A stretch of DNA of 64,000 bases, from assembly GCA_041688515.1 (NCBI GenBank), contig JBDNHZ010000185.1, positions 1,376-65,375 on the forward strand, read 5' to 3'. This document shows, one piece after another, positions 18,125 through 44,745 of this stretch. The notes beneath the pieces are model-generated. The model did not search any database, was not told the DNA's origin, and saw only the letters and a program-made list of their open reading frames with translations. This DNA is from Verrucomicrobiota bacterium (GTDB taxonomy: Bacteria; Verrucomicrobiota; Verrucomicrobiia; Limisphaerales; UBA9464). How positions within the stretch are numbered: the first letter of the stretch is position 1; every line of letters starts with the position of its first letter. Made by a program: the position numbers and the translations under genes.

Positions 18125-18201
18125 GGGGGTGTAGCTCAATTGGTTAGAGCGCTGCCCTGTCACGGCAGAGGTTACGGGTTCGAGTCCCGCCACTCCCGCC
18201 A
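18125..18201 (+). tRNA. tRNA-Asp (anticodon GUC), CCA encoded
   Basis: Hand-folded cloverleaf. Acceptor gggggtg/cactccc (one G-U), D arm gctc-aattggtta-gagc, anticodon arm ctgcc-ctGTCac-ggcag (GTC at 18159-18161), T arm acggg-ttcgagt-cccgc (one outer mismatch), discriminator g, cca. Confidence 0.9.
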
Positions 18202-18213
18202 CTTTCCCGCGGA
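18170..18213 (+). repeat. proximal copy of an imperfect 44-nt direct repeat (tRNA-Asp 3' part plus 12 nt downstream), attL-like
   Basis: ggttacgggttcgagtcccgccactcccgccactttcccgcgga recurs at 44667-44710 in the same orientation (hand alignment, about 39 of 45 columns identical). Confidence 0.6.
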
Positions 18214-18353
18214 AAATGAGGGGGTCTCTCCTGACCGGACAAAAGCCGGGCAGAAATAAAAAAGAAAGGCCCCCTCCGGATGGTTCGCGGAGACAGTGTT
18301 TTCACTCCCATTTACCCCGCCTCCACCCGCTCCGGTGAAACCTTCGTCGTTGC

Positions 18354-19031
18354 GTGGGACGAAGCTCCGTTCGCAGGCGTCGCTCTCTCGCTGATCTCCC
18401 AGAGGCCACCCCCTTCGCGCAGAAACGAGCCAAGGAACTGCTCGAAGGTCTTGTAGGACCCATCGACGTCGCGATTGCCGAGTACGTGGAAGCCCGGCAG
18501 GCCCGCGGTGCGATTCCGCTGTCGGTAACTGCCCGAGAGTATGCCCTGCTCCGCCCTTCCGCCGTGTCCTCCCCGCCGGTTTCCCAAGTCATCGACGAAT
18601 TCCTGGTCGCCGAGCGGTCCGCAGGACGAAGCGACCGCCACCTGGAGGATTCGGCATCCCGACTCGGGCGATTCCGGGACGACTTCAAGGTGCCGATGTC
18701 CGGCATCCGAGTGTCCGACGTCGAGCAGTGGATCGACGGCTAGGACGCGCCCCCCCTCAAACGGAAGCGGAAGAAGCACAGCGAGACCAAAATCTCCAAG
18801 CAAGCTTTCAAGGGTCGAACCCGGAGCAACCACCTGACCGCCATGCTGATCGTCGTCCTCCGGGCAGCCGACCCGGCCCAGTTCGAAATCCTGACCTGGA
18901 AGGAGATCCGGATTGCGTCCGGGGAGTCGTTCTATCGGGTCGAGGTGAAGCGCTCGCGCTTCGGGACTTCGAGGCTCGCCCTTCTCACCGGTGACCGGGT
19001 GAACGAGATACTCCGTTTACTCGGTTTGTGA
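18354..19031 (+). pseudogene. tyrosine-recombinase (phage-type integrase) remnant
   Basis: N-terminal SAM-like region (VIDEFLVAERSAGRSDRHLEDSASRLGRFRDDFKVPMSGIRVSDVEQWIDG) ends at an in-frame TAG 18741-18743. The same frame continues (RTRSNHLTAMLIVVLRAA...ILTWKEIRIASGESFYRVEVKRSRFGTSRLALLTG) and stops at 19031 without the HxxR...Y catalytic end. It lies 153 nt downstream of tRNA-Asp. Confidence 0.6.
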
Positions 19032-19447
19032 GCACCTCGGCACCCGCCGAATCCGCAGGGACGCTCATCCCGGACTCCACGAAACGGACCGGCGGTGTCA
19101 GTCCCGACACCAAAGCGGTGGCCGTGGCCGCAAGTCGCTTGAGCTGGTAACAGTTGATCCTCAACTCTCGGGCCATGCGGGCCAGACCCTAATCCCCCGC
19201 TTCCTTCGCGCCTTTGCATCTTCGTTGTTCACTCGCGTCATCAGGTGGCAACCGTCGGTCACCAGCCATTGTTCTCCAACCATCGCACAAGATCCTGCTC
19301 AACAATTCGCCACTCCTGCCGGGTGAGCGGGCGGATAGACAGCAAGTCACGGAATACCTGGCATGCGTGGAGACGCACCATCCGGCGGGTCACGCCCGGG
19401 GTAAGCGGAGGAGGCTGGATCTCAGCAGGCGGCCGGCTGTTTTTCAC
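18985..19447 (-). mobile_element. possible degraded IS accessory (IS66 TnpA / IS3 OrfA-like HTH) gene fragments
   Basis: Two short minus-strand ORFs in different frames. 19259..19447 reads ...RPLTRQEWRIVEQDLVRWL. 18985..19176 reads ARELRINCYQLKRLAA...TPPVRFVE. These recall the RRxWTxEEKxRIV ... VARxxGxxxxLLxxWRR ... FVPV layout of IS66-type TnpA. Weak, pattern-level similarity only. Confidence 0.3.
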
Positions 19448-19626
19448 GAGACATGTCGATGGGGTTACCCGGCGGATGTTGTAGCACTCCCGGTATCGTA
19501 CCGGTCGGCTGCCCGGTGCGACTACTGGTGAGAACGCGATCCGTCGGTGAGTGAAAGGACTAGCCCGGATATTTCACAGGCATTCGACGCGGAATGCAGC
19601 GGAAGATCGGCACCCCACCCGGGTGT

Positions 19627-21057
19627 TCAGATCCGTGCCGGCGGCACCCCGGGTTCCAACGAGGCACGGACCCTGGGCAGCGCCTGAGGATACCGCTCCT
19701 GGAGATGGGCGATCAGTTTCTCACGGATTTCGCAGCGCAGATTCCATGCCTTGGAGGCGTCGGCGGACGTCGCCAGCACCCGGAGTTGCATGGCGCGATC
19801 GGTTGTTTCCGTCACCTGCAGGTTCCAGAAGCGTCGGTCCCAGTCACCGCACCCCTTCACAATCTGTTCGATCGCCGGCCGCAGTTCGGCGAGCGGCAGG
19901 GTGAAATCAACCCACACAAACACGGACCCGAGGATATCCGCCGATTTCCGCGTCCAGTTCTGGAAGGGCTTCTCGATGAAATGGCTGAGCGGCACGATGA
20001 GACGGCGGTCATCCCAGATGTGCACCACCACGTAAGTGAGGCTGATCTCCTCGATGCGGCCCCATTCGCCCTCGACGATGACGACGTCGTCGATCCGGAT
20101 CGGCTGGGTCATGGCGATCTGGAATCCGGCGAAGAGGTTCGCGATGGTGCGCTGGGCCGCGAAGCCGATGATGATTCCCAGCACGCCCGCCGACGCGAGA
20201 ATGCTTGTGCCGAAGCGCCGGACTTCATCGAACAGCATCAGCACGGACGCCGCAGTGAAGATTCCGATGATGACGGAGAGCGTCTTGCCCAGCACGTGAA
20301 CCTGCGTGTACACCGTGCGCGCCTGGAGGTTGTCCGCCGCTTTGATGTCGTATTGGGACAACACGGCCTTCTCCGCCAAGGCGACCGCCTGGAACAGGAT
20401 GTAGGCGACCGCACCGATGATGAGGATGCTGCTCGCCCTGCCGAGGACGCCGGCGGATTCCGGGGACAATCCGATCATCGGCAGGGCGAAGATGACACCG
20501 ACCACCGGAACAATGACGCGCAGGCTCCGCCCGAGCAGCGGCACCACGAGGTCGTCCAGCTTGCTCTCCGTCCTGCCTGCCCATGCTTTAAGACCGGCTT
20601 CCAAGACATGGGTGGATTTGAAGAACAGCCAGAAAACCGCGACAAAAATGCCGGCGTTGAACAGCGTGTCGAAGAGCAGCCGTGCGGGGTGGGATCCATC
20701 GGTGCCCGAGAGCTTCAACAGCACGGGGGTCGCGGCGATGCCGACGCCAAGGATCCAGAGGAGGAGGTAGAGCGGGCGTCCGATGGTCCGCCAGAACATC
20801 GCCCTCCATTGACCCGATTCGGAGCCACCTTCGGCTTGGCGGACCTTCCGTCTGAGGAACGAGGCCGCAAGACCATTGACCACCACCACCAGAAGGACCA
20901 GGCAGAGGACGACACCCCCGTCTGCCCGGGAGAGGTTCCCGAAAAGCGGTGCACCGACCTCCGGTCCAAAAATCTGTTCCGCCAGGGTGGTCAGCAGTTT
21001 TGTCAGGCCAACGGCGATGCCGTCGAGGAAGCCATTTCCGGCCGCAGTGGTGTTCAT
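19627..21057 (-). CDS. MscS-family mechanosensitive ion channel
   Basis: Multiple N-terminal TM helices, then the MscS core LGIIIGFAAQRTIANLFAGFQIAMTQPIRIDDVVIVEGEWGRIEEISLTYVVVHIWDDRRLIVPLSHF. ATG 21057 overlaps the treY stop (ATGA 21054-21057). Confidence 0.9.
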   Translation of the reverse strand: MNTTAAGNGFLDGIAVGLTKLLTTLAEQIFGPEVGAPLFGNLSRADGGVVLCLVLLVVVVNGLAASFLRRKVRQAEGGSESGQWRAMFWRTIGRPLYLLLWILGVGIAATPVLLKLSGTDGSHPARLLFDTLFNAGIFVAVFWLFFKSTHVLEAGLKAWAGRTESKLDDLVVPLLGRSLRVIVPVVGVIFALPMIGLSPESAGVLGRASSILIIGAVAYILFQAVALAEKAVLSQYDIKAADNLQARTVYTQVHVLGKTLSVIIGIFTAASVLMLFDEVRRFGTSILASAGVLGIIIGFAAQRTIANLFAGFQIAMTQPIRIDDVVIVEGEWGRIEEISLTYVVVHIWDDRRLIVPLSHFIEKPFQNWTRKSADILGSVFVWVDFTLPLAELRPAIEQIVKGCGDWDRRFWNLQVTETTDRAMQLRVLATSADASKAWNLRCEIREKLIAHLQERYPQALPRVRASLEPGVPPARI

Positions 21058-23666
21058 GAAGCGTGGGTTGCCTGGGTTGAGGCCCGGGCGTCCGGATCGA
21101 TCTTTTCCAGAAGTGCCACCGGAAAATCGGCCAGCACTTCGGCCAGCATCACGGAGGGGTTCCCTCCGAGTGCCCGGACTTCGAGATGCGCCCCGGTGAA
21201 AACATTGCGGAGACGACAGCCGGAAAGCGCCGGCGGGAGGGCCAACCGCGTGTCGCCCCAGATTTCTCCACCAACGGGGATCGGGTCCCGGCCTCCGGCA
21301 AGTCCATGGACCAACCGGGGCACCACCGTGATGGCAATGGTGCCTCCCAGGGATCGGGCGAAGGCGCAGACATGCATCGTGCGCACCCCTGTTGCGGACA
21401 GGGGAAGATAGTCACCTTTGCGGTAAAGCAGCTCGTGTAGCCGACGGAAATGGAGCGTCCGGTGGATGACCGACATCTTGATCCGGCCATCATCCGAAGC
21501 CTCGCGAAACGTTCCGGTGGTGAGGGGGACGGTTCTGGACCTGGACTCCCGCTCCAAATGCTTCAAAGCCTCCTCCCGCACGCCGTAGTCAACCGGCCGG
21601 CGGTTGTCCGGATCCACCAGACTCAAATCCCACAGTTCGGTTCCTTGGTAGAGGTCCGGAACGCCCGGCGTGGTGAGTTTGAGCAGCGTCTGCGCCAACG
21701 AATTGATGCGACCGGCTACGATCACGTCCGGGAGGAACTGCTCAAGCATCCCGACGAACTCCGGGTCGCCGATCACCGAGGAGACGAAACCCGCCAGCGC
21801 CTCGTCATACGCAGCATTCCGGTCGGTCCAGTTGGTGTGCTGCTTGGCCTCGCGCGACGCCTTCTCCATGTAGGCCAGCGCGCGATCCACCGGCAGCGGC
21901 CAGGCCCCCACCAGGATCTGATAAAAGAGGTACTCGGCATTCCGGTCCGGCAGGCCGTCGCGGCGATGGCGCTCATTCCAGTCCGACCATCGACGTACGG
22001 CCTCAGCCCACCGGTCCGGAATCTCCGACAAAACGGTGAGCCGGGCCCGGACATCCCCACTGCGCTTGGTGTCGTGGGTCGTCGACGCCAGCATGGTCCC
22101 CGGCCATTGCTCCAGCGAGCGACGGCAGGCGGCATGGAACGTCTGCAATCCCACGCCAAAGTGAGAAGGATCGCCCCCCACCTCATTGAGGACTACCAGG
22201 CGGTTGAAGCAGTAGAACGTGGTATCCTCAACCCCCTTGGCCATGGCGGGTCCGGCCAACTGCTGAAAGCGCATCACGAACTCGGCCTCCAATCCCTCCT
22301 CCAGACGATCCTGAAGGAGGTCACCAATGAAGGTCAGTATCCAGGGAGCAGGCGTGGGGTGCTCCTGCGTCGCCGATGCGAGCGCCTGCGCTATCCAGGC
22401 ACGGTCGGCATCGGACCGTCCGCTCTTTCCCACCTGGGCATAGGTTCGATAAACCGGAAAACAAACCAGCATCGCGACGATCGCCTGTCGCGTCTCGTCG
22501 AAACCCACCGCCCGTTCCGGGCAGCGCGCAGCGAGGATCACTTCCAGCAAGCGGACCAACCGTTCCACCTCGGTGAGGAGCTGGTTCGTCAGGATCCACC
22601 GCTTCTTTTCCCGCACCATTGGACCGTAGTCAGTCGGTTCCCCGGTGAATCGGGAGTAGAACTCCGTGATCGGCCGCTCCCCGGCGGGGTCAACAAACAA
22701 TTCGTCAACCCGGGCGAGATAGTCGTAGCCCGTGGTGCCATCGACCGGCCAGTCGACCGGGAGGTCCTCGCCCGGCTCCAGGATCTTCTCAACGACGATC
22801 CACGCGCCCGGAACGGACTCCCGCAAGTCCGAGAGATACTGCTGCGGATCACGCAACCCGTCCGGATGATCCACGCGCACGCCGTCGATCCAACCCCGCC
22901 GGTGCCAGTCGATGATGCGATTGTGAGTGGCCGTGAAGACTTCCGGCCGTTCAACACGGATCCCCGCGAGGTCGGTGATGGTGAAGAAGCGCCGGTAGTT
23001 CAACCGGTGATCGCCCTGCCTCCAGAAGGACAGCCGGTAATGCTGCAACTCCAGCAGGCGGACCAGGGACTCCCGGTCGGTGTTGAACCCGGCGATCGCC
23101 TCCTCCCGCAATGTCCCGGGGGCGGGGAGGGTCTCCGGGTTGACCGGATACCGGTGGTCAAAATACCGGACCATCACCTCGCCGCCCTCGGACAGCACAC
23201 CGAGTTCATCCCGTTCCAAGACCTGCTGCAGTTCATCCCCCAGCACAGGCAGGAGAACCTTGCCCCTCAACCCGTCCCCAGGCGACTCCCAGTCGATGTC
23301 GAAGTAGCCCGCAAACGGGCTCTTTCGTCCGTTCCTCAGCACATCCCACCACCACGGATTCTCCCGTGCGGCAGCCATATGGTTGGGAACAATGTCCAGC
23401 ACCAGGCCCAGGCCCCGCTCACGGAGTGCGGCAACGAACGCCTCGAATTCCGCAGCGGTGCCCACCTCGGGATTGACCCGGGTCGGGTCGCAGACGTCGT
23501 AGCCGTGGGTGCTGCCCGCCCGGGCCGCGAGCAACGGGGATGCATAGGCATGGCTCACGCCCAGCGCGGCGAGATAGGGCACGATGGCCAGCGCATCCCG
23601 CAGCGTGAACCCGCGATGAAACTGAAGCCGGTAGGTGGCCCGCGGCCGCTTCGTTTCCATGCTCAT
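21054..23666 (-). CDS. treY: malto-oligosyltrehalose synthase
   Basis: ATYRLQFHRGFTLRDALAIVPYLAALGVSHAYASPLL...GSTHGYDV, LVLDIVPNHMA, GVRVDHPDGL. Start set at ATG 23666 (MSMETKRP), overlapping the GH57 stop (ATGA). Confidence 0.9.
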   Translation of the reverse strand: MSMETKRPRATYRLQFHRGFTLRDALAIVPYLAALGVSHAYASPLLAARAGSTHGYDVCDPTRVNPEVGTAAEFEAFVAALRERGLGLVLDIVPNHMAAARENPWWWDVLRNGRKSPFAGYFDIDWESPGDGLRGKVLLPVLGDELQQVLERDELGVLSEGGEVMVRYFDHRYPVNPETLPAPGTLREEAIAGFNTDRESLVRLLELQHYRLSFWRQGDHRLNYRRFFTITDLAGIRVERPEVFTATHNRIIDWHRRGWIDGVRVDHPDGLRDPQQYLSDLRESVPGAWIVVEKILEPGEDLPVDWPVDGTTGYDYLARVDELFVDPAGERPITEFYSRFTGEPTDYGPMVREKKRWILTNQLLTEVERLVRLLEVILAARCPERAVGFDETRQAIVAMLVCFPVYRTYAQVGKSGRSDADRAWIAQALASATQEHPTPAPWILTFIGDLLQDRLEEGLEAEFVMRFQQLAGPAMAKGVEDTTFYCFNRLVVLNEVGGDPSHFGVGLQTFHAACRRSLEQWPGTMLASTTHDTKRSGDVRARLTVLSEIPDRWAEAVRRWSDWNERHRRDGLPDRNAEYLFYQILVGAWPLPVDRALAYMEKASREAKQHTNWTDRNAAYDEALAGFVSSVIGDPEFVGMLEQFLPDVIVAGRINSLAQTLLKLTTPGVPDLYQGTELWDLSLVDPDNRRPVDYGVREEALKHLERESRSRTVPLTTGTFREASDDGRIKMSVIHRTLHFRRLHELLYRKGDYLPLSATGVRTMHVCAFARSLGGTIAITVVPRLVHGLAGGRDPIPVGGEIWGDTRLALPPALSGCRLRNVFTGAHLEVRALGGNPSVMLAEVLADFPVALLEKIDPDARASTQATHAS

Positions 23667-26092
23667 CCGTTGACCTTGAATCCCAGTTGCTCGCTCAGGC
23701 GATCGAACTGGGCCAGCCATTCCACGGAGGCCGTGTCCCCCTGGTCGGCCTTCGAGCGTCGCTCCGCGGCGATCGTCTTCAGCATCCCGAAGCAGAGATT
23801 CTGGGTCTTCCAGAGATTCACCTCGATGCCCATCATGCGGACGACCTCAGCCAAGTTTGCCGTGCGGGTCAGCAGCGTCATGTCGTCCGGAGACTGCATC
23901 AGACGTTCCATACACCGGTCGATGTTGCCCTTGATGGCGTATCCGAGCATTTCGTGCTGCAGTTCGACACTGTCGGCGCGCGCCTCCTCCACAAGGGCCT
24001 TCACCCGGGCGGGATCGGCGGCATCGGATTCGAACTGTCGACGCAGATCGCAGTTCAGCACGAAGTCGACGGCCGTCTTCAGCTCAGCCGGTGCCGGCGC
24101 GCCGATGTCCTTCAGGAAGCGGGCGAGCGGAGTGTACTGGTTGGAAATGTCACGGTAGTGCTTCTCGATATCCAGGCTGGTGGATGCCAGCACCTGCTTG
24201 ATGATTTTTCGCTGCTCATCCCGGAACAGGTATTTCAGCGTGTAATAGGACTCTCCGAAATGGCGGTCCATGAGCCGGATCACGGTCGGAAAGTCGGCGC
24301 GGTTGAAGGCCTCGGTGAACTCGGCCACCAGCTTCTCAAACGCCTCTTCCCCCCGGAAGAACCGCACGCCGCCGTTCACATTATGATCCCCCAGGTGCAG
24401 GGCCGCGTAGCTGATTACGTCGGAGGCCCGCGTAATGTCGAAGGTCACCTTGGACCGTCCGATGATGAGCCGGGCCTTTCCGGCGGTCAGCAATTCGCGA
24501 TGCTGTTGCTCGAAGGTGAAGGCGTAGATGTGTCCCTTCTCGGGATACGTTTCGAACAGCGAGCTGACGGCGAAATGCGCCCCAACCTTCTCGCGATCGA
24601 TGATCGCCGGCTTGACGAACTTCTCATAGATCACCTTCCCGTTGCGGTGTTCGGAAATATTGCTCGGCGCCTTGGCCAGGCGCTCGACGAAGCCGGGTTC
24701 CAGGTCCTCACCACAGAGGTTCTGGAGCAGCTGGAGGGCGCGGCCGGCGTACTGGATCACCTGCACCGTCTCGATCCCGGACAACTCGTCGAAGAACCAT
24801 CCGCAGCTGGTATACATCAACATCGCGTGGCGCTGGAGCTCCATCAGGCGGAGGAACGCCAACTGCTGCTCCTCATTCAGCGGATGCCGGGCGTGACGCC
24901 CGATGAATGCCGCAAGGCTCGCGTCGGAACGGTCGAGGATGACGGAGACATAATCATCGCGGGCGGCCCACGGATCCTTGACCAGCACGGCAGCCTGCGC
25001 CTCGAAGCGCGAGTACAGTTGATCGCGCAGCCAGTCCAGCGCCTCGCGCAGCGGGCCGCGCCACCGCTGGTTCCATCCCGCCCTTCCGCCGCTGTTGCAA
25101 CCGCAGTCCGTGAACCAGCGTCCCACCCCGTGCGAGCAGCTCCAGGCGCTCTTCTCATGGATCTGCGCCTCCATCGCCGGAGGATGGTTCTCCAGGTACT
25201 CGCCGTAGTTGGTGAGCTTCGCCAGGTGGTTGGACTCGATGTGATTCAGCGCGTGAGCCAGGCCCATTTCGCCGTACCGATGGTGGTGCCCGTAGGATTC
25301 ACCGTCGGTGGCGATGTGAACGAGCTGGTCCCAGTCACGCCCGTCGTCAAACCCATCGGCGAGCCGGTGCGCAAAGGTTTCCCCGCTGTTCAGCAACCCC
25401 TCGAAGGCAACCGCCTTGGAGATGTGCGCGTCGTAGAAGAAGACCACGATGCTCCGTTGGGAGGGCAGCTTCACGAGGTACGGACGCGACGGGTCCACCC
25501 GGCCTCCGCTGACGTCGGACCACTCCCCGCCCTGCAGGGGTCGGATCCGGTTCGCCTGGTAGGGGGAGAGGATGGTGAACTTGATTCCCTGCTCCGCCAG
25601 CACCTCGAGGGACGGCGTGTCCGCGGCGGTCTCCGAGAGCCACAACCCCTCCGGCTTGCGGCCGAAGCGATGCTCGAAGTCGCGGATACCCCAGATCACC
25701 TGGGTCTTCTGGTCCCGGGGATTCGCCAGCGGCAGGATGATGTGATTGAACACCTGCGCGATCGCCGAGCCGTGCCCGGAGAATCGCAGGCAGCTCTGTT
25801 GGTCCGCCTCCACGATGGACGCGAGGATCTCGGGACAATTCTGTTCCATCCACGCCAGCAGGGTCGGCCCGAAATTGAAGCTGATACGCGAGTAGTTGTT
25901 GACGATGTCCACGATGCGCCCGTCGCCATCCAGCGTCCGGGCGGTGGCATTGGGCGCGTAGCATTCGGCGGTGACGCGCTCGTTCCAGTCGTGGTAGGGA
26001 TAGGCGGAGTCCTGCAGCTCAACCGCCTCCAGCCAGGGATTCTCGCGCGGCGGCTGATAGAAATGTCCGTGTAAACAGAGGAATCGTTCCAT
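23663..26092 (-). CDS. glycoside hydrolase family 57 protein (long form with C-terminal DUF3536-like extension)
   Basis: N-terminus MERFLCLHGHFYQPPRENPW and ...HIATDGESYGHHH..., typical of GH57 alpha-glucan-active enzymes; 809 aa. Confidence 0.85.
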   Translation of the reverse strand: MERFLCLHGHFYQPPRENPWLEAVELQDSAYPYHDWNERVTAECYAPNATARTLDGDGRIVDIVNNYSRISFNFGPTLLAWMEQNCPEILASIVEADQQSCLRFSGHGSAIAQVFNHIILPLANPRDQKTQVIWGIRDFEHRFGRKPEGLWLSETAADTPSLEVLAEQGIKFTILSPYQANRIRPLQGGEWSDVSGGRVDPSRPYLVKLPSQRSIVVFFYDAHISKAVAFEGLLNSGETFAHRLADGFDDGRDWDQLVHIATDGESYGHHHRYGEMGLAHALNHIESNHLAKLTNYGEYLENHPPAMEAQIHEKSAWSCSHGVGRWFTDCGCNSGGRAGWNQRWRGPLREALDWLRDQLYSRFEAQAAVLVKDPWAARDDYVSVILDRSDASLAAFIGRHARHPLNEEQQLAFLRLMELQRHAMLMYTSCGWFFDELSGIETVQVIQYAGRALQLLQNLCGEDLEPGFVERLAKAPSNISEHRNGKVIYEKFVKPAIIDREKVGAHFAVSSLFETYPEKGHIYAFTFEQQHRELLTAGKARLIIGRSKVTFDITRASDVISYAALHLGDHNVNGGVRFFRGEEAFEKLVAEFTEAFNRADFPTVIRLMDRHFGESYYTLKYLFRDEQRKIIKQVLASTSLDIEKHYRDISNQYTPLARFLKDIGAPAPAELKTAVDFVLNCDLRRQFESDAADPARVKALVEEARADSVELQHEMLGYAIKGNIDRCMERLMQSPDDMTLLTRTANLAEVVRMMGIEVNLWKTQNLCFGMLKTIAAERRSKADQGDTASVEWLAQFDRLSEQLGFKVNG

Positions 26093-31250: not shown

Positions 31251-31320
31251 ATCGCGATTCTTTACCGGGTGGAAGCGACGGTCTACTGGGCAGTTCCCGG
31301 CTCGGCTCTCAGTAAAACAC

Positions 31321-33456: not shown

Positions 33457-33516
33457 GGTGTATCGTTGGGGTCCGCCGCGGGCACTCCGCCCAGGGCGGA
33501 GCATCCGGCAAGCGCA

Positions 33517-34755: not shown

Positions 34756-34759
34756 GGCA

Positions 34760-36341: not shown

Positions 36342-39300
36342 CTACTTGTTTTCGTCCAGAAGGTGAAGGACCCCCTGCAGCGGGATCTTCAGCCACGCCG
36401 GACGGTTGTTCAGTTCGTATCCGATCTCATAGATGGCTTTATTGAGCAGGTAGGCCTGCAGGACCATGCGCCGTTCCTCGGAGGTGGAGGGGAGGATCTC
36501 CGAACTACCCAGAGCCTTTAGGTAGGCCCGCAGGAAACTGGCGCTGACGGCAAGGTTCCAGAAGCGCGCCCACGGTTCGTAGGTCGCCCGGTTCTCCGGC
36601 GACAGTCTCCCGCGCTCCACCTGCTGCTCCAGTCCGAAGTAGGCGGCGTAGTGGAAGGACCGGATCATTCCCGCCACGTCGCGCAGCGCCGACCGCTTGA
36701 TGAGACGTTCGCTCAGGGCCACCGCGGGCTCACCTTCGAAATCGATGATGACGAAGTCCTTGCCTGTCCAGAGGACCTGGCCCAGGTGATAGTCGCCGTG
36801 AATGCGGATCCGCCGGGCGCTGATGTTGCGCTGGAACAGGGGCTTGTACCGGTTGATGATCTCGCCCTCGAGCGCGCCGACCTTAGCCGCCATCGGCGCG
36901 ACGTCCGCGGGAAGCGTCTTGATCTGCTTGCGCAGCACCCGGAGGTTCTGCGACGCAAGATTGCGCATCGACTGGAACAGCCCGCGCAGGTAGTGCGGCG
37001 TGAAGGGTTCGGAGGCGAAGCTCGTATCCTCCGGCTCGGACGCCAGCGCGAGGTGCATGGCGGCGGTGCGCTCACCCAGCATCCGGGCGGACTCCAGGTA
37101 GGTGCCGACGGTTTCCTGCACGATAGAGGAAGGCTCCTCGCCGCTGAGGCGGAACAAGTCGCCGCCCATGGCCGGCGGCTTTTCGCCCTTCGCATGGAGC
37201 ACGCCCACGCGGTCGTAGTAACGACCCAATGCGTCCAGGGCGACCTCCCAGGCATCCTTCGCGTTCGGAACGAATCCTGAGATGATGGCGAGGCTGCTCC
37301 GCTCGCCGTTGGAGGCGTGATACTCCAGCGCTCCGGCCAGCGGGGCCACGTTCGGGAACTTCTTTTCCGTAAGGAACCGTCCGATCTCCAGGTCGGGATT
37401 GATCCCCACGTCCAGGCGCCGGAACAGCTTCATCATGAGCTTGTCTCCGAACAGTACCGACGAGTTGCTCTGCTCCGCCTTGCCGAGCGTGGGAGTCGGG
37501 GCCTTGGCTGCCCCCAGGATGCTCCGCATCGCGAGGGTGCGCGAACCTTCGACCACGCCCTGCGCCCCCGCGCTGCGGCCGCCCTTGGAGGCCATTCCCA
37601 GCAGCGCCTTGCAGAAGGCCGGGCTCCCCAGCGCGTCGTGCAGGACCCCGGCGGGTCCGCCTTCCACCTTCAGGTCGGCGATGACCAGCCGGGGCGAATT
37701 CTCGCGGAGCTGTTGGGCGTCCTTGCCGGACGCGAATGCCAGCGGCATGGAATACAATTCCGGATCCCCCTGCACATAGTCCACCAGCAGGAGCGTCAGG
37801 TAACCCAGTTCCTTCCCATCCGCCGGCACCGGTGCGGCTTCCTTGAGGGTGAGCGACTTGATCTCCTTGGCCTTCCCCCCGAACCACCGTTGGGCCCGGA
37901 CATAGTCCGGCAGCAAGGCTTCCAAGGCGGTTTTGGACCTTCCTTTGAACACATCGGACCACTCGTTCATCACCGTCAACGACCGTGCCGCCAGCGGCCC
38001 ATTGGACAGGGTTGCCGAAACATCGGCCTGCTTGTTCTCCAGCGAGAACCAGTAGAACGCGTGCGGCCCCATCGTAATCAGGTACGGCTTGTCGGTGATG
38101 GGCGGGAAATCCGTGCGGCCGAACAGCTCGACCGGCACCATCTTGTCGAAGGCGGAGAGATCCAGTTGGACCGGTTGCACGAAGCGCGACAGGTTGGCCA
38201 CGACCAGCAGGGTCTCCTTCTCATGCCGCAGGACATAGCAGAGGATCCTGCGGTTTTCGGGTTGGAGGAACTCGCATTTTCCCTCGCCCAGAGCGCGCCA
38301 CTTCTTCCGAAGCGCCAGCAGGCGGCGGGTCCACCACAGCAGGGAATGGGGGTTGCCCATCTGGCCTTCCACGTTCACCGCCTCATAGTGGTACTCCGGG
38401 TCGTAGATGATGGGCAGGTAAAGGGCCTGCGGATTCGCACGTGAGAAGCCGGCATTCTTGTCGGAACTCCACTGCATGGGCGTCCGCACCCCATTACGAT
38501 CCCCGAGGAAGATATTCTCACCCATGCCGATCTCGTCCCCGTAGTAGAGGACGGGCGTGCCCGGGAGGGAAAAGAGTAGCGCGTTGAGCAACTCGATGCG
38601 CTTGCGATCGTTTCCGAGCAGGGGCGCGAGCCGGCGGCGGATGCCCAGGTTCAGCCGGGCCTGGTGAACGTTGGCGTACATGCGGTACATGTAGTCACGC
38701 TCCTCGTCCGTCACCATTTCCAGCGTCAGTTCATCGTGGTTGCGCAGGAACAGTGCCCACTGGGCGGTCTCCGGGATCGCCGGCGTCTGCTCAAGGATGT
38801 CCACGATGGGGGTGCTGTCCTCCATGCGAAGCGCCATGAACAGGCGCGGCATGAGGGGAAAGTGAAAGGCCACATGGCACTCGTCGCCCTTGCCTTCACC
38901 GAAGTACGCCACGGCGTCCTCCGGCCACTGGTTGGCCTCGCCCAGCATCATACGGTCCCCGTACTTCTCGTCCACGTGGGCGCGCAGCCTCTTCAGGGCC
39001 CCGTGGGTCTCCTTGAGGTTCTCGCAGCTCGTGCCCTCGCGCTCGAAGAGATAGGGCACAGCGTCCAGCCGGACGCCGTCCACGCCGAGATCCAGCCAGA
39101 AATCCATCACCTTGATCATCTCGTCGAAGACCTCGGGATTATCGAAATTGAGGTCCGGCTGGTGCGAGAAGAAACGGTGCCAATAATACGCTCCGGCCAC
39201 ATGGTCCCAGCTCCAGTTCGACACCTCGACATCCTTGAAGATGATGCGGGCCTCCTTGTACTTCTCCCGGGTGTCGCTCCAGACGTAGAAATCCCTCCAC

Positions 39301-39713
39301 CGACTGCCCGGCTTGGCGCGGCGCGCACGCTGAAACCACGGATGCTGGTCTGAGGTGTGGTTCATCACCAGCTCGGTGATGACCCGCAGCCCCCGCTGAT
39401 GGGCTTCGCGCAGGAAAACCTTGAAGTCCGCCAGGGTGCCGTAGTTGGGATGGACGGTGAAGTAGTCGGCGATGTCATATCCGTCGTCACGCAGTGGCGA
39501 CGGATAGAACGGCAGGAGCCACAGCGCGGTGACACCCAAGTCCTTCAGGTAGTCCAGCTTGCTGGTCAGTCCCTTGAAATCCCCGATGCCGTTCCCGTCG
39601 CTGTCGCAGAATGCACGGACGTGCAGCTCGTAGATGACACCGGATTTATACCACAATGGATCCCGATCCAGACCCGGGTTGTTAGCTTTCTTGCTCGGCC
39701 TGATTTTTGCCAT
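36342..39713 (-). CDS. treS: trehalose synthase (maltose alpha-D-glucosyltransferase) fused to maltokinase
   Basis: TreS part: [77 protein letters not shown]. Pep2 part: [27 protein letters not shown]. 1123 aa. Confidence 0.9.
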
Positions 39714-39743: not shown

Positions 39744-41759
39744 TCAAAGATAATAATCGAAGCTTTCTTCCGTGCAGACCCGGCGTCGCAGGCGGAAGAC
39801 ATGGGCGGGGGCAAACGCCGGGTCCAGTTGCACGAAATTCCGGGCGCCGTTCCACAGGTATCGCCCATCGGTCAGGAGGTCATGCACCTGGTAGCTACCG
39901 GTCGGAGCGATATCCCACTCCTCCACCGGAAGCGTCAGCCAACCGCTCTGGACGTGATGGGGATCCAGATTGACCACCACGAGGATGAGGTTGTCGGACC
40001 CCTCCGCGGATTTGCTGAAGGCGATCATCTGGTCGTTGTCGGTGGGGTGGAATTCCAGGCCGTCGTTCCGGTGCAGCGCGGGATTGTCACGACGGATCTG
40101 GTTCACGCGGCGGATCAGCTCCGTCAGATTGCCCGGAAGATTCAGGTTCCAGGAGCGAATCTCGTACTTCTCCGAATCAAGATATTCCTCGGCACCGGCG
40201 GCCCGGGACTGGTTCACGCACAACTCGTACGCAGGCCCGTAGATTCCGTAACTGGCGCCGAGCGTGGCCGCCAGAATGAGCCGCGACATGAACGCGGGGC
40301 GTCCCCCATATTGCAGGCTGAGCGGGAGGATGTCCGGAGTATTCGGCCACAGGTTCGGCCGGAGAAATTCGCTCACCTCGGTGCGCGTGAGCTCCGTCAG
40401 GTACTCCGTCAACTCCTTCTTGGTGTTGCGCCAAGGGAAGTAGTTGTAGGACTGCGTGAACCCTGCCTTGGCCAGCCGGTACATGACCTTGGGACGGGTG
40501 AAGGCCTCGGACAGGAAGATCATCTCCGGGTGCTTCTTCTTCAGCTCCGTGATGCACCACTGCCAGAACGGAAATGCCTTGGTATGGGGATTGTCGACGC
40601 GGAACACTGTTACCCCCTGCCCATGCCAGAATTCGAAGACACTCTTCAATTCCAGCCACATCGCCTTCCAGTCGCCACTCTCAAAGTCGAACGGATAGAT
40701 ATCCTGGTATTTCTTCGGGGGATTCTCGGCGTACTGGATGGAGCCATCCGAACGTTGGCGGAACCAGTCCGGATGCGCCTTCACGTACGGATGGTCCGGC
40801 GCGCATTGGAACGCGATATCCAGCGCGATCTCGATCTTCAACTCCCGCGCCCGCATCACAAGACGACCGAAATCTGCCAGTGTTCCAAGCTCCGGAAGGA
40901 TCGACTTGTGCCCGCCTTCAATGGCCCCGATGGCCCACGGACTGCCCGGCTCACCCGGCTGGCATTCGGGATTGTTGTTCTTCCCCTTGCGGAAGGCCCG
41001 GCCGACCGGATGGATCGGCGGGAGATAAAGGACGTCAAAACCCATTTCCGCCACCCGAGGCAGATGGTCGATCACATCGTCCAGAGTTCCATGTTTCCCG
41101 TCCTTTCCGAGCGATCGGGGGAACAATTCATACCACGCACCGAATCGAGCGAGCTCCGGATCAACGGTGATGCACAACTCCCTGACATACCGGGTCGAAC
41201 GTTGCCGGTCCGGATTGGCCGCCATCAATGCGGCCAACTGGGGCGACAGGGCGAGCGCGATGCGGCTTTCCAGTCCGGACGGATCCTGCTCGGTCAACGC
41301 CCGGGCCGACGCCGTCAGTTGCAGCGTTCCTTCCTGGACGGCCCGCCTTGCGGCGGCACCGACCAACCGCGCACCGTCCCGGAGATCCACCGAGAGGTCC
41401 TGCCCGGCCTTGTGCTTCTTGGCCAGGTCATGCTGCCACGACTTGAAATGATCAACCCACGCCAGGACGGTATAGCGGTATCCGCCCATTCCGGTGACCT
41501 CGAACCGCCCCCGCCATCGGTCGTTTACCAGCGGCACCATCGGGACTTCACTCCAGTCCGTTTCGCCCTCCTTCCGATAAAGCAGCACCGCAGCGATAAG
41601 GTCATGACCGTCGGTGAAGATGTCCGCCTCGACCTCGACGTGATCACCGACGGTACGCTTGATCGCAAACTGTCCGGCCTCGATCTCCGGACGCACCTCC
41701 GAAATGACCACTCGGCAGTCACCATCCAATTTTTCAGCTGATTTCTTAGAATCCGACAT
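39744..41759 (-). CDS. glgE: alpha-1,4-glucan:maltose-1-phosphate maltosyltransferase
   Basis: GFDVLYLPPIHP, FRVDNPHTKAFPFWQW, FLSEAFTRPKVMYRLAKAGFTQSYNYFPWRNTKKEL; 671 aa. Confidence 0.9.
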   Translation of the reverse strand: MSDSKKSAEKLDGDCRVVISEVRPEIEAGQFAIKRTVGDHVEVEADIFTDGHDLIAAVLLYRKEGETDWSEVPMVPLVNDRWRGRFEVTGMGGYRYTVLAWVDHFKSWQHDLAKKHKAGQDLSVDLRDGARLVGAAARRAVQEGTLQLTASARALTEQDPSGLESRIALALSPQLAALMAANPDRQRSTRYVRELCITVDPELARFGAWYELFPRSLGKDGKHGTLDDVIDHLPRVAEMGFDVLYLPPIHPVGRAFRKGKNNNPECQPGEPGSPWAIGAIEGGHKSILPELGTLADFGRLVMRARELKIEIALDIAFQCAPDHPYVKAHPDWFRQRSDGSIQYAENPPKKYQDIYPFDFESGDWKAMWLELKSVFEFWHGQGVTVFRVDNPHTKAFPFWQWCITELKKKHPEMIFLSEAFTRPKVMYRLAKAGFTQSYNYFPWRNTKKELTEYLTELTRTEVSEFLRPNLWPNTPDILPLSLQYGGRPAFMSRLILAATLGASYGIYGPAYELCVNQSRAAGAEEYLDSEKYEIRSWNLNLPGNLTELIRRVNQIRRDNPALHRNDGLEFHPTDNDQMIAFSKSAEGSDNLILVVVNLDPHHVQSGWLTLPVEEWDIAPTGSYQVHDLLTDGRYLWNGARNFVQLDPAFAPAHVFRLRRRVCTEESFDYYL

Positions 41760-41912: not shown

Positions 41913-42593
41913 TCAACCGATCGCCTCGACCCAGAGCACCGCGTGGCGGGTGAGTTCGGGACCGGTCTTGAGACGTAGCTTCCGTTTGATGCTGGCGCGA
42001 TGGGCTTCGACTGTCTTTCCGCTCATGCTGAGGCGCCGGGAAATCATCTTCGTCTCCACGGCCTGGCCGATGAGCGCAAAAACCTCCAGTTCACGATCGG
42101 TGAGCAGTTCCACCGGGGAAATCGGTCCCGCCCGTTGCTGTTTGCCGCCCAGGCTGCCGAGCAGGCGGGTGGAGACTTCATCGCTGAGATGGATCTGCCC
42201 GACCAGGACTCGACGGATGGCCGTCAGCAGCGCCTCGCTGCTTGCCTGCTTGGAGACATAGCCGCGCCCCCCCGCGCGGAGCACGCGCTCGGCGAAGAGC
42301 GATTCATCGTGCATGGAAAGCACGAGCACCGGCAGGCCGGGACGCAGGGCGGCGATGTCCCGGATGAGTTCGAGTCCGTTGCGGCCGGGTAGATTGATAT
42401 CGACCAGCACCAGGTCCGGGTTGAGCCGGCCGACAGCGTCCACGGCTTCACCCGCATCCACCGCCTCGCCACAGACCACGAGGTCCGCCTCGCGGTTGAT
42501 CTGCGTGGTCAATCCCTCGCGAAGCACGGCGTGGTCGTCCACGACCAGGATTCTGCGGCGGGCGGGCGTGGTCTGGGGAGGGGGGGCGGGCAT
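41913..42593 (-). CDS. NarL/LuxR-family response regulator
   Basis: Receiver domain RRILVVDDHAVLREGL...DLVLVDINLPG. C-terminal HTH LTDRELEVFALIGQAVETKMISRRLSMSGKTVEAHRASIKRKL. Confidence 0.9.
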   Translation of the reverse strand: MPAPPPQTTPARRRILVVDDHAVLREGLTTQINREADLVVCGEAVDAGEAVDAVGRLNPDLVLVDINLPGRNGLELIRDIAALRPGLPVLVLSMHDESLFAERVLRAGGRGYVSKQASSEALLTAIRRVLVGQIHLSDEVSTRLLGSLGGKQQRAGPISPVELLTDRELEVFALIGQAVETKMISRRLSMSGKTVEAHRASIKRKLRLKTGPELTRHAVLWVEAIG

Positions 42594-42614
42594 GTCGGTG
42601 GGAGTGTTGAAAGC

Positions 42615-44273
42615 TCAATGCCGGCAGAGGCGCTCATCAACCGGCGGTAATGGCACGGTGCAGACCACCTCGGTGCCGTGCGGGCGACGCGGCCGCACCT
42701 CCAGGTGCCCACGGATTAATCCGGCCCGATGCTGCATGATGTGCAACCCGAGCCCGCGCCGGCGCGGTGAAAGCGGGCCGATGCCGCGGCCGTCATCGAC
42801 AATGCCCAGGGTCAGCCGTTTCGCGGTGGTGCGCAGCGAAAGGACGATGACCCGAGGACGCGCGTGCTTCACGGCGTTGTTCACCGCCTCCTGCGCGATG
42901 CGGTACAGGTGTCCTGCCACGAGCGTGTCATGGACCAGCGCTGGGGCCCGACTGCTCATGCGGCAACGAATCCCCCTCAACTCGGCGGTCTGCGCGGCCA
43001 GTTCGGACAAGGCGTCCATCAGGCCCTCGGGTGCCTCGGCGATGGGGGACAATCCCCGCGCCATGCGCCGCGTCGCCTCGATGGCCCGGCGCATCAGGTC
43101 GAAGATCCGGCCCGCAGCCGCAACCTCGGGCGCCGAACGTTCGGCCAGTTTCTGCCTTAGGACGTTGCTGAGGTACGCGATGCCGCCCAGTTGCTGTCCA
43201 AGCCCGTCGTGAAGTTCATGGGCAAAAATCCGGCGTTCACGGTCGCTCGATTCCAGCAATTCGCGCTCGAGCTGGCGGCGTCGGGAAATGTCACGCACGA
43301 ACCAGCGGGTGTGAACCAGCCGACCCTTCTCCCAGTGACCGTCGGCGTCCACGAGCACAAAGCGAACGTCCCCCTTCGCGGCATGAAACTCCGTGGCGAA
43401 ATGGATGACGGTCTCGCGGCGCGCCAAGCGTTTCAGCAGCTCGTCGGGAACCCGAGCCTCTGGATGAAAGGAGTGGATCGGGCGGTCCACGACATCCTCG
43501 GCGCGACGTTCCAGCAGAGCGGTGAACGCCCGGTTTGCCCGCAACACCACGCCCTCCGGCGACACGAGGACCAGTCCGACGGATGCATGCTCGAAAAGGT
43601 CGTCCAGCTCCGCCTCGCGCCGCACGAGGGCGTCGCCCAGCCGCCGCTGCGCGGTGATGTCCCGAGCGATCGTCGAGAACCCATTGAGACGGCGGTCGGA
43701 ATCGTAAACCGGGGATAACGTCAGCGAGACCCGGATGCGTTGTCCGTCCTTGCGCAGCCGCTCCGTTTCGAAGTGCTCCACCACCCGGCCCCGGCGCAGG
43801 CGCGCCAGTAGCCCCTGGTATTCGTCTTCCGCACCGGCCGGCAGCAGCGACCGGCTGGAGCGTCCCAACATCTCGCTGGCAGTGTATCCAAAGATGCGCG
43901 CCGCGGCGGCGTTCCAGGTCGTGATGATGCCTTCGAAGGTGCGGCAGAAGATGGCGTCGCTGGAATGCTCCACGATGGCGGCGAGCTGGCCGTGGGGGTC
44001 GGGGACGTCGGCGACGACAGCCCCCGGACGCGGCGCGGTTTTGCCGCGTGCCGCCACCCGTTTCCTTGCAGGCGGGCGCCCCGCGGGCGACTGCTTCACC
44101 GGGCCGTTCAGTTTCGATCTCAACCGCGGTATTTTAGGTGGGTTCCGACCGGAACACAGCAAAGAAGAAACGATCACAAACGGGTGGATTGTCGAGTCCG
44201 GGCGCTTTTCGAGGTTTACGAAGAGAGGGTTGCCGCAAAGCGCGATGCCGGCCTGGGCAGGCGGTCCATTCAA
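42615..44273 (-). CDS. PAS-domain sensor histidine kinase (HisKA_3 / HATPase_c)
   Basis: Two PAS-like modules (LAAIVEHSSDAIFCRTFEGIITTWNAAAARIFGY; LFEHASVGLVLVSPEGVVLRANRAF). H-box FAHELHDGLGQQL. ATPase part NAVKHARP...DDGRGI. The start is uncertain: TTG 44273 (ORF track), or GTG 44099 (VKQSPAGRPP...), which I find at least as plausible. Confidence 0.85.
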   Translation of the reverse strand: MNGPPAQAGIALCGNPLFVNLEKRPDSTIHPFVIVSSLLCSGRNPPKIPRLRSKLNGPVKQSPAGRPPARKRVAARGKTAPRPGAVVADVPDPHGQLAAIVEHSSDAIFCRTFEGIITTWNAAAARIFGYTASEMLGRSSRSLLPAGAEDEYQGLLARLRRGRVVEHFETERLRKDGQRIRVSLTLSPVYDSDRRLNGFSTIARDITAQRRLGDALVRREAELDDLFEHASVGLVLVSPEGVVLRANRAFTALLERRAEDVVDRPIHSFHPEARVPDELLKRLARRETVIHFATEFHAAKGDVRFVLVDADGHWEKGRLVHTRWFVRDISRRRQLERELLESSDRERRIFAHELHDGLGQQLGGIAYLSNVLRQKLAERSAPEVAAAGRIFDLMRRAIEATRRMARGLSPIAEAPEGLMDALSELAAQTAELRGIRCRMSSRAPALVHDTLVAGHLYRIAQEAVNNAVKHARPRVIVLSLRTTAKRLTLGIVDDGRGIGPLSPRRRGLGLHIMQHRAGLIRGHLEVRPRRPHGTEVVCTVPLPPVDERLCRH

Positions 44274-44666
44274 GATCTGGAATCGCGTCCACGACTATCG
44301 ACAGGTCGAAGGGAGATGAGGTGGGGTATGAGGCTTTCGATATGCCCTGACACTTTGGACTGGGGCAGCCCTCTGCCGCTTTCTCGTGACCGGGCGCGGG
44401 TCAATGAAATGAACCCCCGATTCGTTGGGGGCGTGCCGTCTTACTTCCGGAATAAACACGCCCCGAAAATCCAAGACACCCTCCATGTAGCCTGCCGGCC
44501 ATCCGGTGCATCCGCGGTCGGACTCGCTTTATCAAAATCGTCATCATCGAGTTCGTTGCTCGGTGGAGTCCATGCTCTCCATGCAAATGGTCGTCTTGTC
44601 TGTTGCGATTCAAAGCGTTGGTAGTGAGCATCCAACCGTATGTTCGCGAACCAAGGCGAAGTACCC

Positions 44667-44710
44667 GGTTTGGGTTCGAGCCCCGCCACCCCCCGCCCCT
44701 TTCCCGCGGA
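44667..44710 (+). repeat. distal, diverged copy of the tRNA-Asp 3' end plus 12 nt of its downstream flank (attR-like); not a complete tRNA
   Basis: ggtttgggttcgagccccgccaccccccgcccctttcccgcgga compared with 18170-18213. The identical tail ctttcccgcgga extends beyond the tRNA CCA end. No matching 5' acceptor strand (gggggtg) within tRNA distance upstream. Confidence 0.6.
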
Positions 44711-44714
44711 GACG

Positions 44715-44745
44715 AAGACCGGCCATTCGGCCGGTCTTTTGTTGT
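44715..44745 (+). terminator. Rho-independent terminator, plus-strand orientation
   Basis: aagaccggcc-attc-ggccggtctt is a perfect 10-bp stem with a 4-nt loop, followed by ttgttgt (with the stem's terminal tt this reads ttttgttgt). It lies 4 nt after the tRNA-like repeat. No plus-strand protein gene ends here. Confidence 0.7.

Follow-up and report, generated by a model that had tools for sequence, protein, structure and literature searches.

The window analysed here is a stretch of 64,000 nucleotides from a contig of an uncultured Verrucomicrobiota bacterium. One tRNA-Asp(GTC) was called in it, at 18125-18201, by both ARAGORN and Rfam. Part of this tRNA gene recurs about 26.5 kb downstream, and the block between the two copies contains 14 cargo genes. 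The features of the locus are as follows.

18125..18201, plus strand: intact tRNA-Asp(GTC), the integration target, on the attL side (ARAGORN; Rfam RF00005, 67.5 bits)
18170..18213, plus strand: proximal direct repeat (attL), comprising the tRNA T-arm, acceptor 3' strand, CCA and 12 nt further
18214..18255, plus strand: element-side leader that contains the conserved hairpin CCTGACCGGACAAAAGCCGGGCAGA, just 5' of the integrase start
18256..19030, plus strand: tyrosine-integrase pseudogene (phmmer, tblastn, pairwise alignment, family profile)
19031..19626, no strand: decayed or non-coding stretch, earlier termed 'IS-like debris'
19627..21057, minus strand: MscS-type mechanosensitive channel (PF00924)
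21054..23720, minus strand: TreY-like maltooligosyl-trehalose synthase (alpha-amylase domain; homologues found)
23663..26092, minus strand: GH57 + DUF3536 glucan enzyme (Pfam)
26099..28030, minus strand: TreZ-like protein with CBM48, alpha-amylase and DUF3459 domains (Pfam)
27946..29949, minus strand: GlgB branching enzyme (Pfam)
29952..31574, minus strand: GlgC ADP-glucose pyrophosphorylase (Pfam)
31321..33504, minus strand: MalQ 4-alpha-glucanotransferase (Pfam)
33517..34755, minus strand: CdaA diadenylate cyclase (DAC and CdaA_N domains)
34760..35929, minus strand: DHH/DHHA1 phosphoesterase (Pfam)
35818..36303, minus strand: small F5/8 type C (discoidin)-like protein (marginal Pfam match; gene conserved in L095 and L097)
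36342..39713, minus strand: TreS-Pep2, a trehalose synthase-maltokinase fusion (Pfam)
39744..41759, minus strand: GlgE maltosyltransferase (Pfam)
41913..42593, minus strand: LuxR-type response regulator (Pfam)
42615..44273, minus strand: PAS histidine kinase (Pfam)
44274..44666, no strand: non-coding right end of the island without a supported ORF; promoter region of the kinase operon and presumed att arm
44667..44710, plus strand: distal direct repeat (attR), a 3' piece of tRNA-Asp lacking the 5' half (spanned by independent contigs L001 and L002)
44714..44745, plus strand: tRNA-Asp intrinsic terminator, displaced (directly 3' of the intact tRNA in L012, L179 and L182)
44779..46902, minus strand: right chromosomal flank with CbiX-like and ThuA-like genes, syntenic in all relatives

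The preliminary description of this DNA had claimed that the tRNA-Asp 3' end, together with 12 nt past the CCA, is repeated at the far side of the block. The two copies, GGTTACGGGTTCGAGTCCCGCCACTCCCGCCACTTTCCCGCGGA (18170-18213) and GGTTTGGGTTCGAGCCCCGCCACCCCCCGCCCCTTTCCCGCGGA (44667-44710), are identical in 39/45 columns, with 4 substitutions and 2 single-nt indels, which reproduces the original count exactly. The best gapped local alignment matched 35/39 positions with one gap (score 56). When the tRNA region was compared with the rest of the window in 1.5-kb chunks, both strands included, the next best score was 30. The direct repeat is unique within the window and far above background, and the alignment across the whole window found no internal att-like copy or second junction inside the block. 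The distal copy has no tRNA 5' half, as described, and neither ARAGORN nor Rfam called an RNA gene there; a tmRNA or other RNA gene at this position was rejected on the same grounds. The differences clustered in the distal copy (CACCCCCCGCCCC versus CACTCCCGCCAC) probably reflect an imperfect att copy carried by the element rather than later decay. A viral-contig match to the tRNA 3' end at 'both ends' (L003/L009) was discarded because it comes only from the redundant ends of a circular phage contig; the sequence downstream in L003/L009 differs from that of the window.

A repeat of this kind could arise if a chimeric metagenome assembly were misjoined at a tRNA-like sequence. The MAG contig that holds the window is 67 kb long, the tRNA-integrase junction (18125-18297) is spanned by no second independent contig, and two contigs, L184 and L182, end close to the repeat. 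Against this, the copies differ at 6/45 positions, which makes them poor substrates for misjoining, the attR junction is covered by two other assemblies (L001 and L002) at 99.8-100% identity, and the tRNA-integrase adjacency was seen again in L011, L013 and L183. We regard a chimera as extremely improbable. Internal pieces of the block were also confirmed by independent assemblies at 99.5-100% identity, the segment from the integrase through mscS to treY by L184 and others by L096 and L098.

An empty site, in which tRNA-Asp would be followed by the terminator and CbiX, had been predicted, and it is present in four independent contigs of close relatives (L012, L178, L179 and L180). The order there is NTP-transferase, tRNA-Asp, CTTTCCCGCGG, the same terminator, CbiX and ThuA with nothing intervening, and the entire 26.5 kb is absent. 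ThuA identity to the window is 89.5% for L012 and L178, and 92.9% for L179 and L180. L179 has at its empty site a tRNA identical to the window tRNA-Asp. L179 positions 4614-11023 correspond to window 18215-11804 and positions 3622-4653 to window 45699-44672; the two matches share 40 nt, which is the repeat, so the breakpoints lie exactly on it. Across the four contigs both flank alignments overlap by 36-40 nt, and the single repeat copy aligns to attL and attR alike. Judged from where the blastn matches to the empty sites overlap, the shared core is 18176-18215. L182, the contig of the closest backbone relative, ends precisely at the left border of the repeat.

The terminator was examined on both sides of the block. 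The stem after the distal copy (44714-44739; -29.3 kcal/mol, z = -3.8) is made of 11 pairs, and a T run comes after it. The terminator is thus real. Its orientation suits the tRNA and there is no plus-strand gene upstream of it, in line with its description as unneeded by any plus-strand gene. A terminator-like site was looked for downstream of the intact window tRNA-Asp and none was found, again as described.

The integrase remnant begins 43 nt past the proximal repeat and corresponds to about residues 1-250 (as far as 288 on P0248) of a protein of ∼400-420 residues. Searches of Pfam and PHROGs and a word-indexed protein search returned only the remnant itself; exhaustive phmmer alone identified it, with 247 homologues that are mostly 400-430 aa. 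PF00589 was found in the C-terminal half of eight homologues among those tested, and this Pfam model matches the family weakly (20-34 bits). The remnant was mapped onto P0242 and P0248 by tblastn and pairwise alignment, and a family profile matches 18339-18740 (E = 1e-29). A truncated tyrosine integrase with an in-frame TAG is therefore borne out, and what survives is the N-terminal part. The start ATG has become ATA, a frameshift lies near 18364-18386, the TAG is at 18741, and the catalytic domain has been lost. Catalytic residues R271, R350/H351 and Y382 of P0242 are invariant in alignment A2 and have no counterpart in the window, and a search of 19000-19700 for remains of the C-terminus gave nothing. 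Since the start codon, the frame and the whole catalytic domain are lost, the island should no longer be able to excise alone, and its description as immobilised fits. No excisionase was recognised in the island. A single-sequence query of IMG/VR with the intact integrase returned no relatives. The 'IS-like debris' between the integrase and mscS was dropped, as the small ORFs in 19031-19626 had no match in Pfam, PHROGs or NCBIfam.

The leader between the repeat and the integrase is conserved 3' of tRNA-Asp in L011 and L013 (alignment A1) and 5' of the intact integrase in L183, where blastn aligned positions 62-271 with window 18231-18439. The intact 401-aa homologue P0242, encoded in L183, is preceded by the 3' end of another tRNA and ∼60 nt with the same hairpin. 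L011 and L013 carry the same ∼80 nt of element-side sequence, including the first integrase codons, 3' of their own tRNA-Asp, which suggests that the element family used tRNA-Asp repeatedly or anciently. In both contigs the tRNA is inverted relative to CbiX and the integrase is truncated.

The retention in these outgroups means that the occupied state could be old, and recombination between direct repeats would restore a clean empty site. The block might then be ancestral at this locus; the 'empty sites' would have arisen by separate deletions, and the distal copy would be left over from a tandem duplication of tRNA-Asp. The distal copy, running from the T-arm to 12 nt past the CCA, has the extent expected of an att site, not that of a gene duplicate, and the proximal copy adjoins an integrase pseudogene. 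Exactly the same clean junction occurs in at least two distinct relative lineages, and repeat-mediated deletion itself presupposes repeats made by integration. We felt that an ancestral block was very unlikely.

The 14 cargo genes form one co-oriented array from attR through to the integrase, and their ORFs are all open. All named identities were recovered with Pfam, with two reservations: the YbbR domain claimed for CdaA was undetected, and the discoidin match, at 28.0 bits, falls just short of the cut-off of 28.2. All four components of the GlgE alpha-glucan pathway are encoded (TreS-Pep2 fusion, GlgE and GlgB), as predicted from Pfam architecture. The storage-glucan/trehalose pathway had been called 'complete', which overstates the content of the block. 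Glycogen synthase (glgA), phosphorylase (glgP) and debranching enzyme (glgX) are not among the island ORFs and may be elsewhere in the genome. The Pfam domains of the 14 proteins are metabolic, signalling or channel domains; none belongs to a relaxase, type IV secretion system or coupling protein. Phage structural or replication genes were likewise not found by Pfam, and the small ORFs had no significant PHROGs match. The DHH-family phosphoesterase may degrade c-di-AMP.

A comparison of GC and tetranucleotide composition had been proposed to set the block apart, and it did not. The GC content is 0.632 in the block versus 0.634 in the flanks, and the tetranucleotide signature of the block correlates with the left flank at r = 0.93, as high as between the flanks. 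Without a compositional signal, composition-based island finders would miss this island. GlgE homologue identity declines much like ThuA homologue identity, which argues that the cargo is native to the lineage and not exotic. The same gene order is found as ordinary chromosomal DNA in other Verrucomicrobiota, in L097 (GlgE 72%) and L018 (65%), which also points to a source within the lineage. In a GlgE scan of a genome collection the best match was 67% identical, with no near relatives among the matches listed. A TreY metagenome scan returned the same organism (L098) and otherwise only matches of ≤61% identity. The closest known relative of the block, L095, is a 90%-identical block contig with 77-84% identity at fourfold-degenerate sites; no link was found from it to any backbone contig. 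The closest backbone relatives, whose sites are empty or unresolved, have 53-71% identity at such sites.

Deviant base or oligonucleotide composition is a common but non-obligatory criterion for genomic islands. The locus has an intact tRNA, att repeats, an integrase gene, now a pseudogene, at the tRNA-proximal junction and empty sites with breakpoints at the repeat; it has neither compositional deviation nor a functional recombinase, the catalytic domain being absent. We consider it highly probable that the 26.5-kb block is a now-immobile tRNA-Asp genomic island, familiar in kind and uncommon in cargo. In the proposed history, a tyrosine-integrase element would have entered the chromosome by recombination between its own attachment site and the tRNA-Asp(GTC) gene, at the 3' end of the latter. 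Integration would have kept the tRNA intact beside the integrase gene (attL), and displaced the original terminator, along with a ∼40-nt copy of the tRNA 3' end, to a position 26,496 bp downstream, beside CbiX (attR). The present island would be everything between the copies, from mscS through the LuxR/PAS-kinase pair. The integrase would then have lost its start codon, reading frame and catalytic domain, so that self-excision was no longer possible. Of the claim that the block is a single island, integration at tRNA-Asp stands, on the repeats, integrase remnant, empty sites and displaced terminator observed here. That the cargo entered together with the element in a single event, rather than by later accretion, we infer.

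Such accretion is a rival reading: a small integrative element would have made the repeats and the integrase, and a native glucan/trehalose block would have moved in later by rearrangement or accretion. A block indistinguishable from the host backbone would fit this, as would a cluster that in other Verrucomicrobiota is a normal locus outside any island. The tRNA-Asp locus is also prone to rearrangement, judging from L011 and L013, and ∼600 nt of unassignable DNA lie between the integrase and the cargo. But the empty sites miss the whole 26.5 kb and not merely a small element, the single array is co-oriented from one end to the other with no second junction within it, and an additional event that left no trace would be required. 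Later entry is unlikely on balance, and entry of the cargo with the element is preferred.

The island places a large, housekeeping-looking gene set on DNA delivered by an integrase, in a Verrucomicrobiota lineage that is uncultured; the set is predicted to span GlgE alpha-glucan synthesis, trehalose interconversion and c-di-AMP synthesis. The island reveals no new mechanism. It does define a family of tRNA-targeting integrases that is poorly modelled and has a conserved hairpin in its leader, and the occupied/empty pair offers a natural test of unit-wise gain and loss of carbon-storage capacity in the clade. More tentatively, the island may be, or recently have been, a vehicle for the horizontal transfer of a near-complete glucan/trehalose module, together with c-di-AMP and two-component control of its own, between closely related Verrucomicrobiota, which we hold to be less likely than not. 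The vehicle reading is hinted at by the block being closer to L095 than the backbone is to its relatives, and by the stop of L182 at the repeat, as an assembly fork from coexisting occupied and empty forms would give. If it were true, the core carbon storage of the clade would be an exchangeable integrase-borne cassette, not a fixed part of the chromosome. Nothing was found in the literature on islands carrying glgE or trehalose clusters.

Among known systems, the chromosomal clusters of L097 (GCA_942490575.1) and L018 share glgE, treS-pep2, (DHH-cdaA), malQ, glgC, glgB, treZ and GH57 with the island, but have no tRNA, att repeat or integrase of the window family within the 6-10 kb fetched, and their flanking genes differ. 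ICEs and integrative mobilisable elements also integrate site-specifically into tRNA genes and leave att repeats; unlike ICEs, the block has no conjugation module (relaxase, T4SS, coupling protein), and unlike a prophage it has no phage structural or replication genes by Pfam. tRNA-linked 'fitness' or 'metabolic' islands with P4/lambda-type tyrosine integrases occur, for example, at tRNA genes of Enterobacteria and Pseudomonas. The window block resembles them in its insertion at a tRNA 3' end, with the integrase directly 3' of the intact tRNA, an imperfect tRNA 3'-end repeat at the far junction and an empty site in related strains. The non-phage, non-conjugative cargo and the decayed integrase that fixes the island are also alike. 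It differs in its Verrucomicrobiota-like host, its composition, which is not atypical, and its integrase family, poorly matched by PF00589. It also differs in its cargo: such islands elsewhere carry virulence, resistance or catabolic genes, whereas this one carries storage alpha-glucan/trehalose genes, a c-di-AMP cyclase/DHH pair and a two-component system of its own.

The only tRNA gene found in the window by ARAGORN and Rfam is a tRNA-Asp(GTC), and the 3' end of this gene recurs in a second copy far downstream. The block between the two copies and its surroundings are laid out as follows.

Left flank, in order: S8 peptidase, AP_endonuc_2, PtsI, NTP-transferase, then the tRNA
18125-18201, plus strand: tRNA-Asp(GTC) (ARAGORN; Rfam RF00005, 67.5 bits)
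18170-18213: proximal repeat, GGTTACGGGTTCGAGTCCCGCCACTCCCGCCACTTTCCCGCGGA
19627-44273, minus strand: island cargo, 14 genes, all minus (Pfam)
44667-44710: distal repeat, GGTTTGGGTTCGAGCCCCGCCACCCCCCGCCCCTTTCCCGCGGA
44714-44739: terminator stem after the distal repeat, 11 pairs, then a T run (-29.3 kcal/mol, z = -3.8)
Right flank, in order: CbiX, ThuA, a 361-aa protein, a beta-lactamase-fold protein, an LTD/CotH protein, RpoC

The two repeat copies are identical in 39/45 columns, with four substitutions and two single-base indels, which reproduces the count in the preliminary description. The tRNA region and the distal site give a local alignment score of 56; every other 1.5-kb chunk on both strands of the window scored 30 or less. 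Other features of the preliminary description were recovered as well. Identity extends 12 nt beyond the tRNA CCA, the distal copy is without the tRNA 5' half, and neither ARAGORN nor Rfam calls an RNA gene there. The terminator, described earlier as one that no plus-strand gene needs, begins four nt after the distal repeat. No plus-strand gene uses it, because all supported genes over 25 kb upstream lie on the minus strand. No terminator-like site was detected downstream of the intact tRNA-Asp.

An uninterrupted locus had been predicted in relatives, with tRNA-Asp followed directly by the terminator and CbiX. Contigs of relatives were fetched by a homologue search with the flank gene ThuA, and four of them have this arrangement. 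In L012 (JGI 3300032315; ThuA 89.5% identical) the order is S8 peptidase, AP_endonuc, PtsI, NTP-transferase, tRNA-Asp, CTTTCCCGCGA, GGACAAGACCGGCCAGTCGGCCGGTCTTTTG, CbiX and ThuA, with no intervening DNA after the tRNA. L178, L179 and L180 are arranged in the same way. By blastn, L179 4614-11023 corresponds to window 18215-11804 (86.5% identity) and L179 3622-4653 to window 45699-44672 (81% identity), and the 40 nt common to both alignments are the repeat. L012 and L178 show the same breakpoint pattern (blastn). The repeat is present once only in each relative locus and the inserted DNA is 26,496 bp long. The terminator at 44714 is tRNA-Asp's own, displaced by the insertion.

A truncated tyrosine-integrase remnant with an in-frame TAG had been proposed just inside the proximal repeat. 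Pfam, PHROGs and a word-indexed protein search matched ORF 18354-18740 only to itself. An exhaustive phmmer search of 1.84 billion representatives generated 247 homologues at E <= 1e-3, mostly 400–430 aa long, of which residues ∼80–190 are the aligned part. In eight of them, a domain scan located the catalytic domain of Phage_integrase (PF00589) within the C-terminal half. The best homologue is P0242, an intact 401-aa integrase on contig L183. Its residues 1–36 map to 18256-18363 with 61% identity, and the remnant has ATA at the position of the P0242 start ATG. Residues 45–190 map to 18387-18734 in a different frame. An in-frame TAG follows at 18741, with weak similarity persisting through it to about 19020. 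The last ∼110–150 residues of P0242 have no resemblance in the window up to 19700; R271, R350/H351 and Y382, invariant in the integrase alignment, fall in this missing part. The remnant described earlier was thus confirmed, and the gene is dead on several counts, having lost its ATG, its frame and its C-terminal catalytic residues and gained a TAG. The ∼600 nt between the remnant and mscS gave zero matches in Pfam, PHROGs and NCBIfam, so the "IS-like debris" reported beside the integrase is not endorsed.

The integrase gene starts 43 nt after the repeat. In L183, P0242 directly follows another tRNA at its 3' end, so the integrase family targets tRNA 3' ends, with int placed beside the tRNA as in the window. 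The ∼80 nt after the proximal repeat, which include hairpin CCTGACCGGACAAAAGCCGGGCAGA and the start of the integrase coding sequence, are also conserved after tRNA-Asp in two relatives that are more distant, L011 (GCA_965284395.1, ThuA 84%) and L013 (ThuA 81%). Similarity in both breaks off a few codons into int, leaving only ∼80 nt from the element side, with unrelated genes beyond. In these two loci (L011 12227-12990, L013 12247-12710), tRNA-Asp and its 230-nt upstream region adjoin CbiX but point the other way. Both genomes have thus undergone rearrangement here, and the tRNA-Asp locus is a rearrangement hot spot. In each of the four stretches listed next, the conserved hairpin comes just ahead of the int start codon; in L183 this is the start of P0242, as blastn also found.

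Window, 18214-18300: hairpin
L011, 12925-12990: hairpin
L013, 12642-12710: hairpin
L183, 55-110: hairpin

The fold of window 18200-18300 is unusually stable (-45.1 kcal/mol, z = -4.2), with base pairing between GGGGGTC and the opening codons of int (GGCCCCCTCC). This leader hairpin may serve as an arm site, or it may control the translation of int.

The contig was compared with other assemblies. The right junction is covered by L001 (43894-51976) and L002 (44290-47254), int-mscS-treY by L184 (18297-21818), kinase-LuxR-GlgE by L096 and GH57-TreY by L098, all at 99.5–100% identity. None of these five spans the tRNA-int junction; the tRNA-int adjacency is seen again in L011, L013 and L183. The two repeat copies are too dissimilar to be confused in assembly, and a chimeric contig is very unlikely. 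Contig L182 belongs to the closest relative by backbone (ThuA 94%); it stops precisely at GGGTTCGAG (10256-10296), where the repeat has its left edge, and this end adjoins the terminator and CbiX. It looks like an assembly-graph fork between intact tRNA and island end, and the island may be polymorphic in the sample of L182 (SRR27489476).

The mechanism with the best support is site-specific integration, carried out by the tyrosine recombinase of the element. The recombinase would have joined the element's own att site to the tRNA-Asp 3' end, and later loss of the integrase would have fixed the island in place. Most mismatches between the repeat copies fall where the distal one corresponds to the acceptor and CCA. 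The final 11 nt of the repeat (CTTTCCCGCGG) are conserved, as is the terminator that follows. Such a distribution is consistent with a crossover close to CTTTCCCGCGG, in which the distal repeat took its left portion from an imperfect copy on the element. Equally, the differences may have arisen after integration, through decay of a fragment no longer under constraint. That the block is ancestral and was repeatedly deleted elsewhere, the distal copy being a relic of tRNA duplication, is very improbable: an integrase is present, and the repeat does not have the shape of a duplicated tRNA.

Pfam recovered the cargo genes listed previously: MscS, TreY-like, GH57+DUF3536, TreZ-like, GlgB, GlgC, MalQ, CdaA, DHH/DHHA1, discoidin-like (marginal), a TreS-Pep2 fusion, GlgE, a LuxR response regulator and a PAS histidine kinase. 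The YbbR domain reported on CdaA was absent from the Pfam results. The GlgE route (TreS, Pep2, GlgE, GlgB) and TreY/TreZ are present. The pathway had been called complete, which is too strong because glycogen synthase, phosphorylase and GlgX are all missing within the block. Every cargo ORF is still open, which argues that the genes are in use. The CdaA and DHH/DHHA1 pair (33517-35929) sits between treS-pep2 and malQ. The same pair follows TreS in a distant Verrucomicrobiota MAG, L018 (14582-17141), and is not found in L097; this suggests a conserved link of c-di-AMP signalling to glucan/trehalose metabolism in part of the phylum. In the right flank, the ThuA-like protein (45727-46902) has a ∼200-aa N-terminal extension. 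JGI assigns its homologues the label "TIGR03067 family". Those of ∼260–300 aa match only ∼60% of the query, the extension apparently missing.

Composition had been proposed as a test for foreign DNA, and the block does not deviate from its flanks. Island and left flank are level in GC (0.632 versus 0.634), and their tetranucleotide profiles correlate at 0.93, as high as flank versus flank. GC falls from ∼0.63 to 0.55–0.57 across the LTD/CotH to RpoC side (50000-64000), which is backbone and not another island since it is syntenic in all relatives fetched.

The best GlgE among species-representative genomes is 67% identical (Verrucomicrobia MAGs). A larger protein collection gave a series of 90, 79, 76, 74, 73 and 72%, resembling that of ThuA (94, 93, 90, 84 and 81%). 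L095 has 90.2% nucleotide identity over window 34540-41940 and keeps the cluster order, as does L018 (GlgE 65%), DHH-CdaA pair included. L097 (GlgE 72%) keeps it too and reads LytTR regulator, GlgE, TreS-Pep2, MalQ, GlgC, GlgB, TreZ. None of these three loci, nor any of the ∼160 further loci retrieved with GlgE or TreY, has an adjoining tRNA or an integrase of the window's family. Host-like composition, the ThuA-like GlgE series and these loci together show that the cargo is native to the lineage and ordinary chromosome elsewhere. GCA_965284395.1 (7.9 Mb) is missing from the 120 best GlgE matches (at least 62% identity), which hints that it is without a close GlgE.

Identity at fourfold-degenerate sites is 0.77–0.84 between the block (34540-41940) and L095 versus 0.53–0.71 when the flanks are compared with L179 and L182, their nearest relatives by backbone. 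L095 may come from a closer relative otherwise unsampled for backbone, or the backbones may have split before the island arrived. A further reading, which we consider unlikely, is that a small element inserted first and native DNA accreted into it later. The now-immobile integrative island of the preliminary description is supported by its repeats, dead integrase and empty sites, and not by composition.

The island is neither an ICE nor a prophage, because it has no conjugation genes (Pfam) and no phage genes (Pfam, PHROGs). No account of a tRNA-linked island with a GlgE/trehalose cluster turned up in a limited search of the literature. With its tRNA target, att repeats, adjoining integrase and empty site in relatives, the block is a classical tRNA-linked genomic island. 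Its composition is host-like, deviation being an optional criterion, and its recombinase is dead. The mechanism is textbook; the cargo and the host are uncommon.
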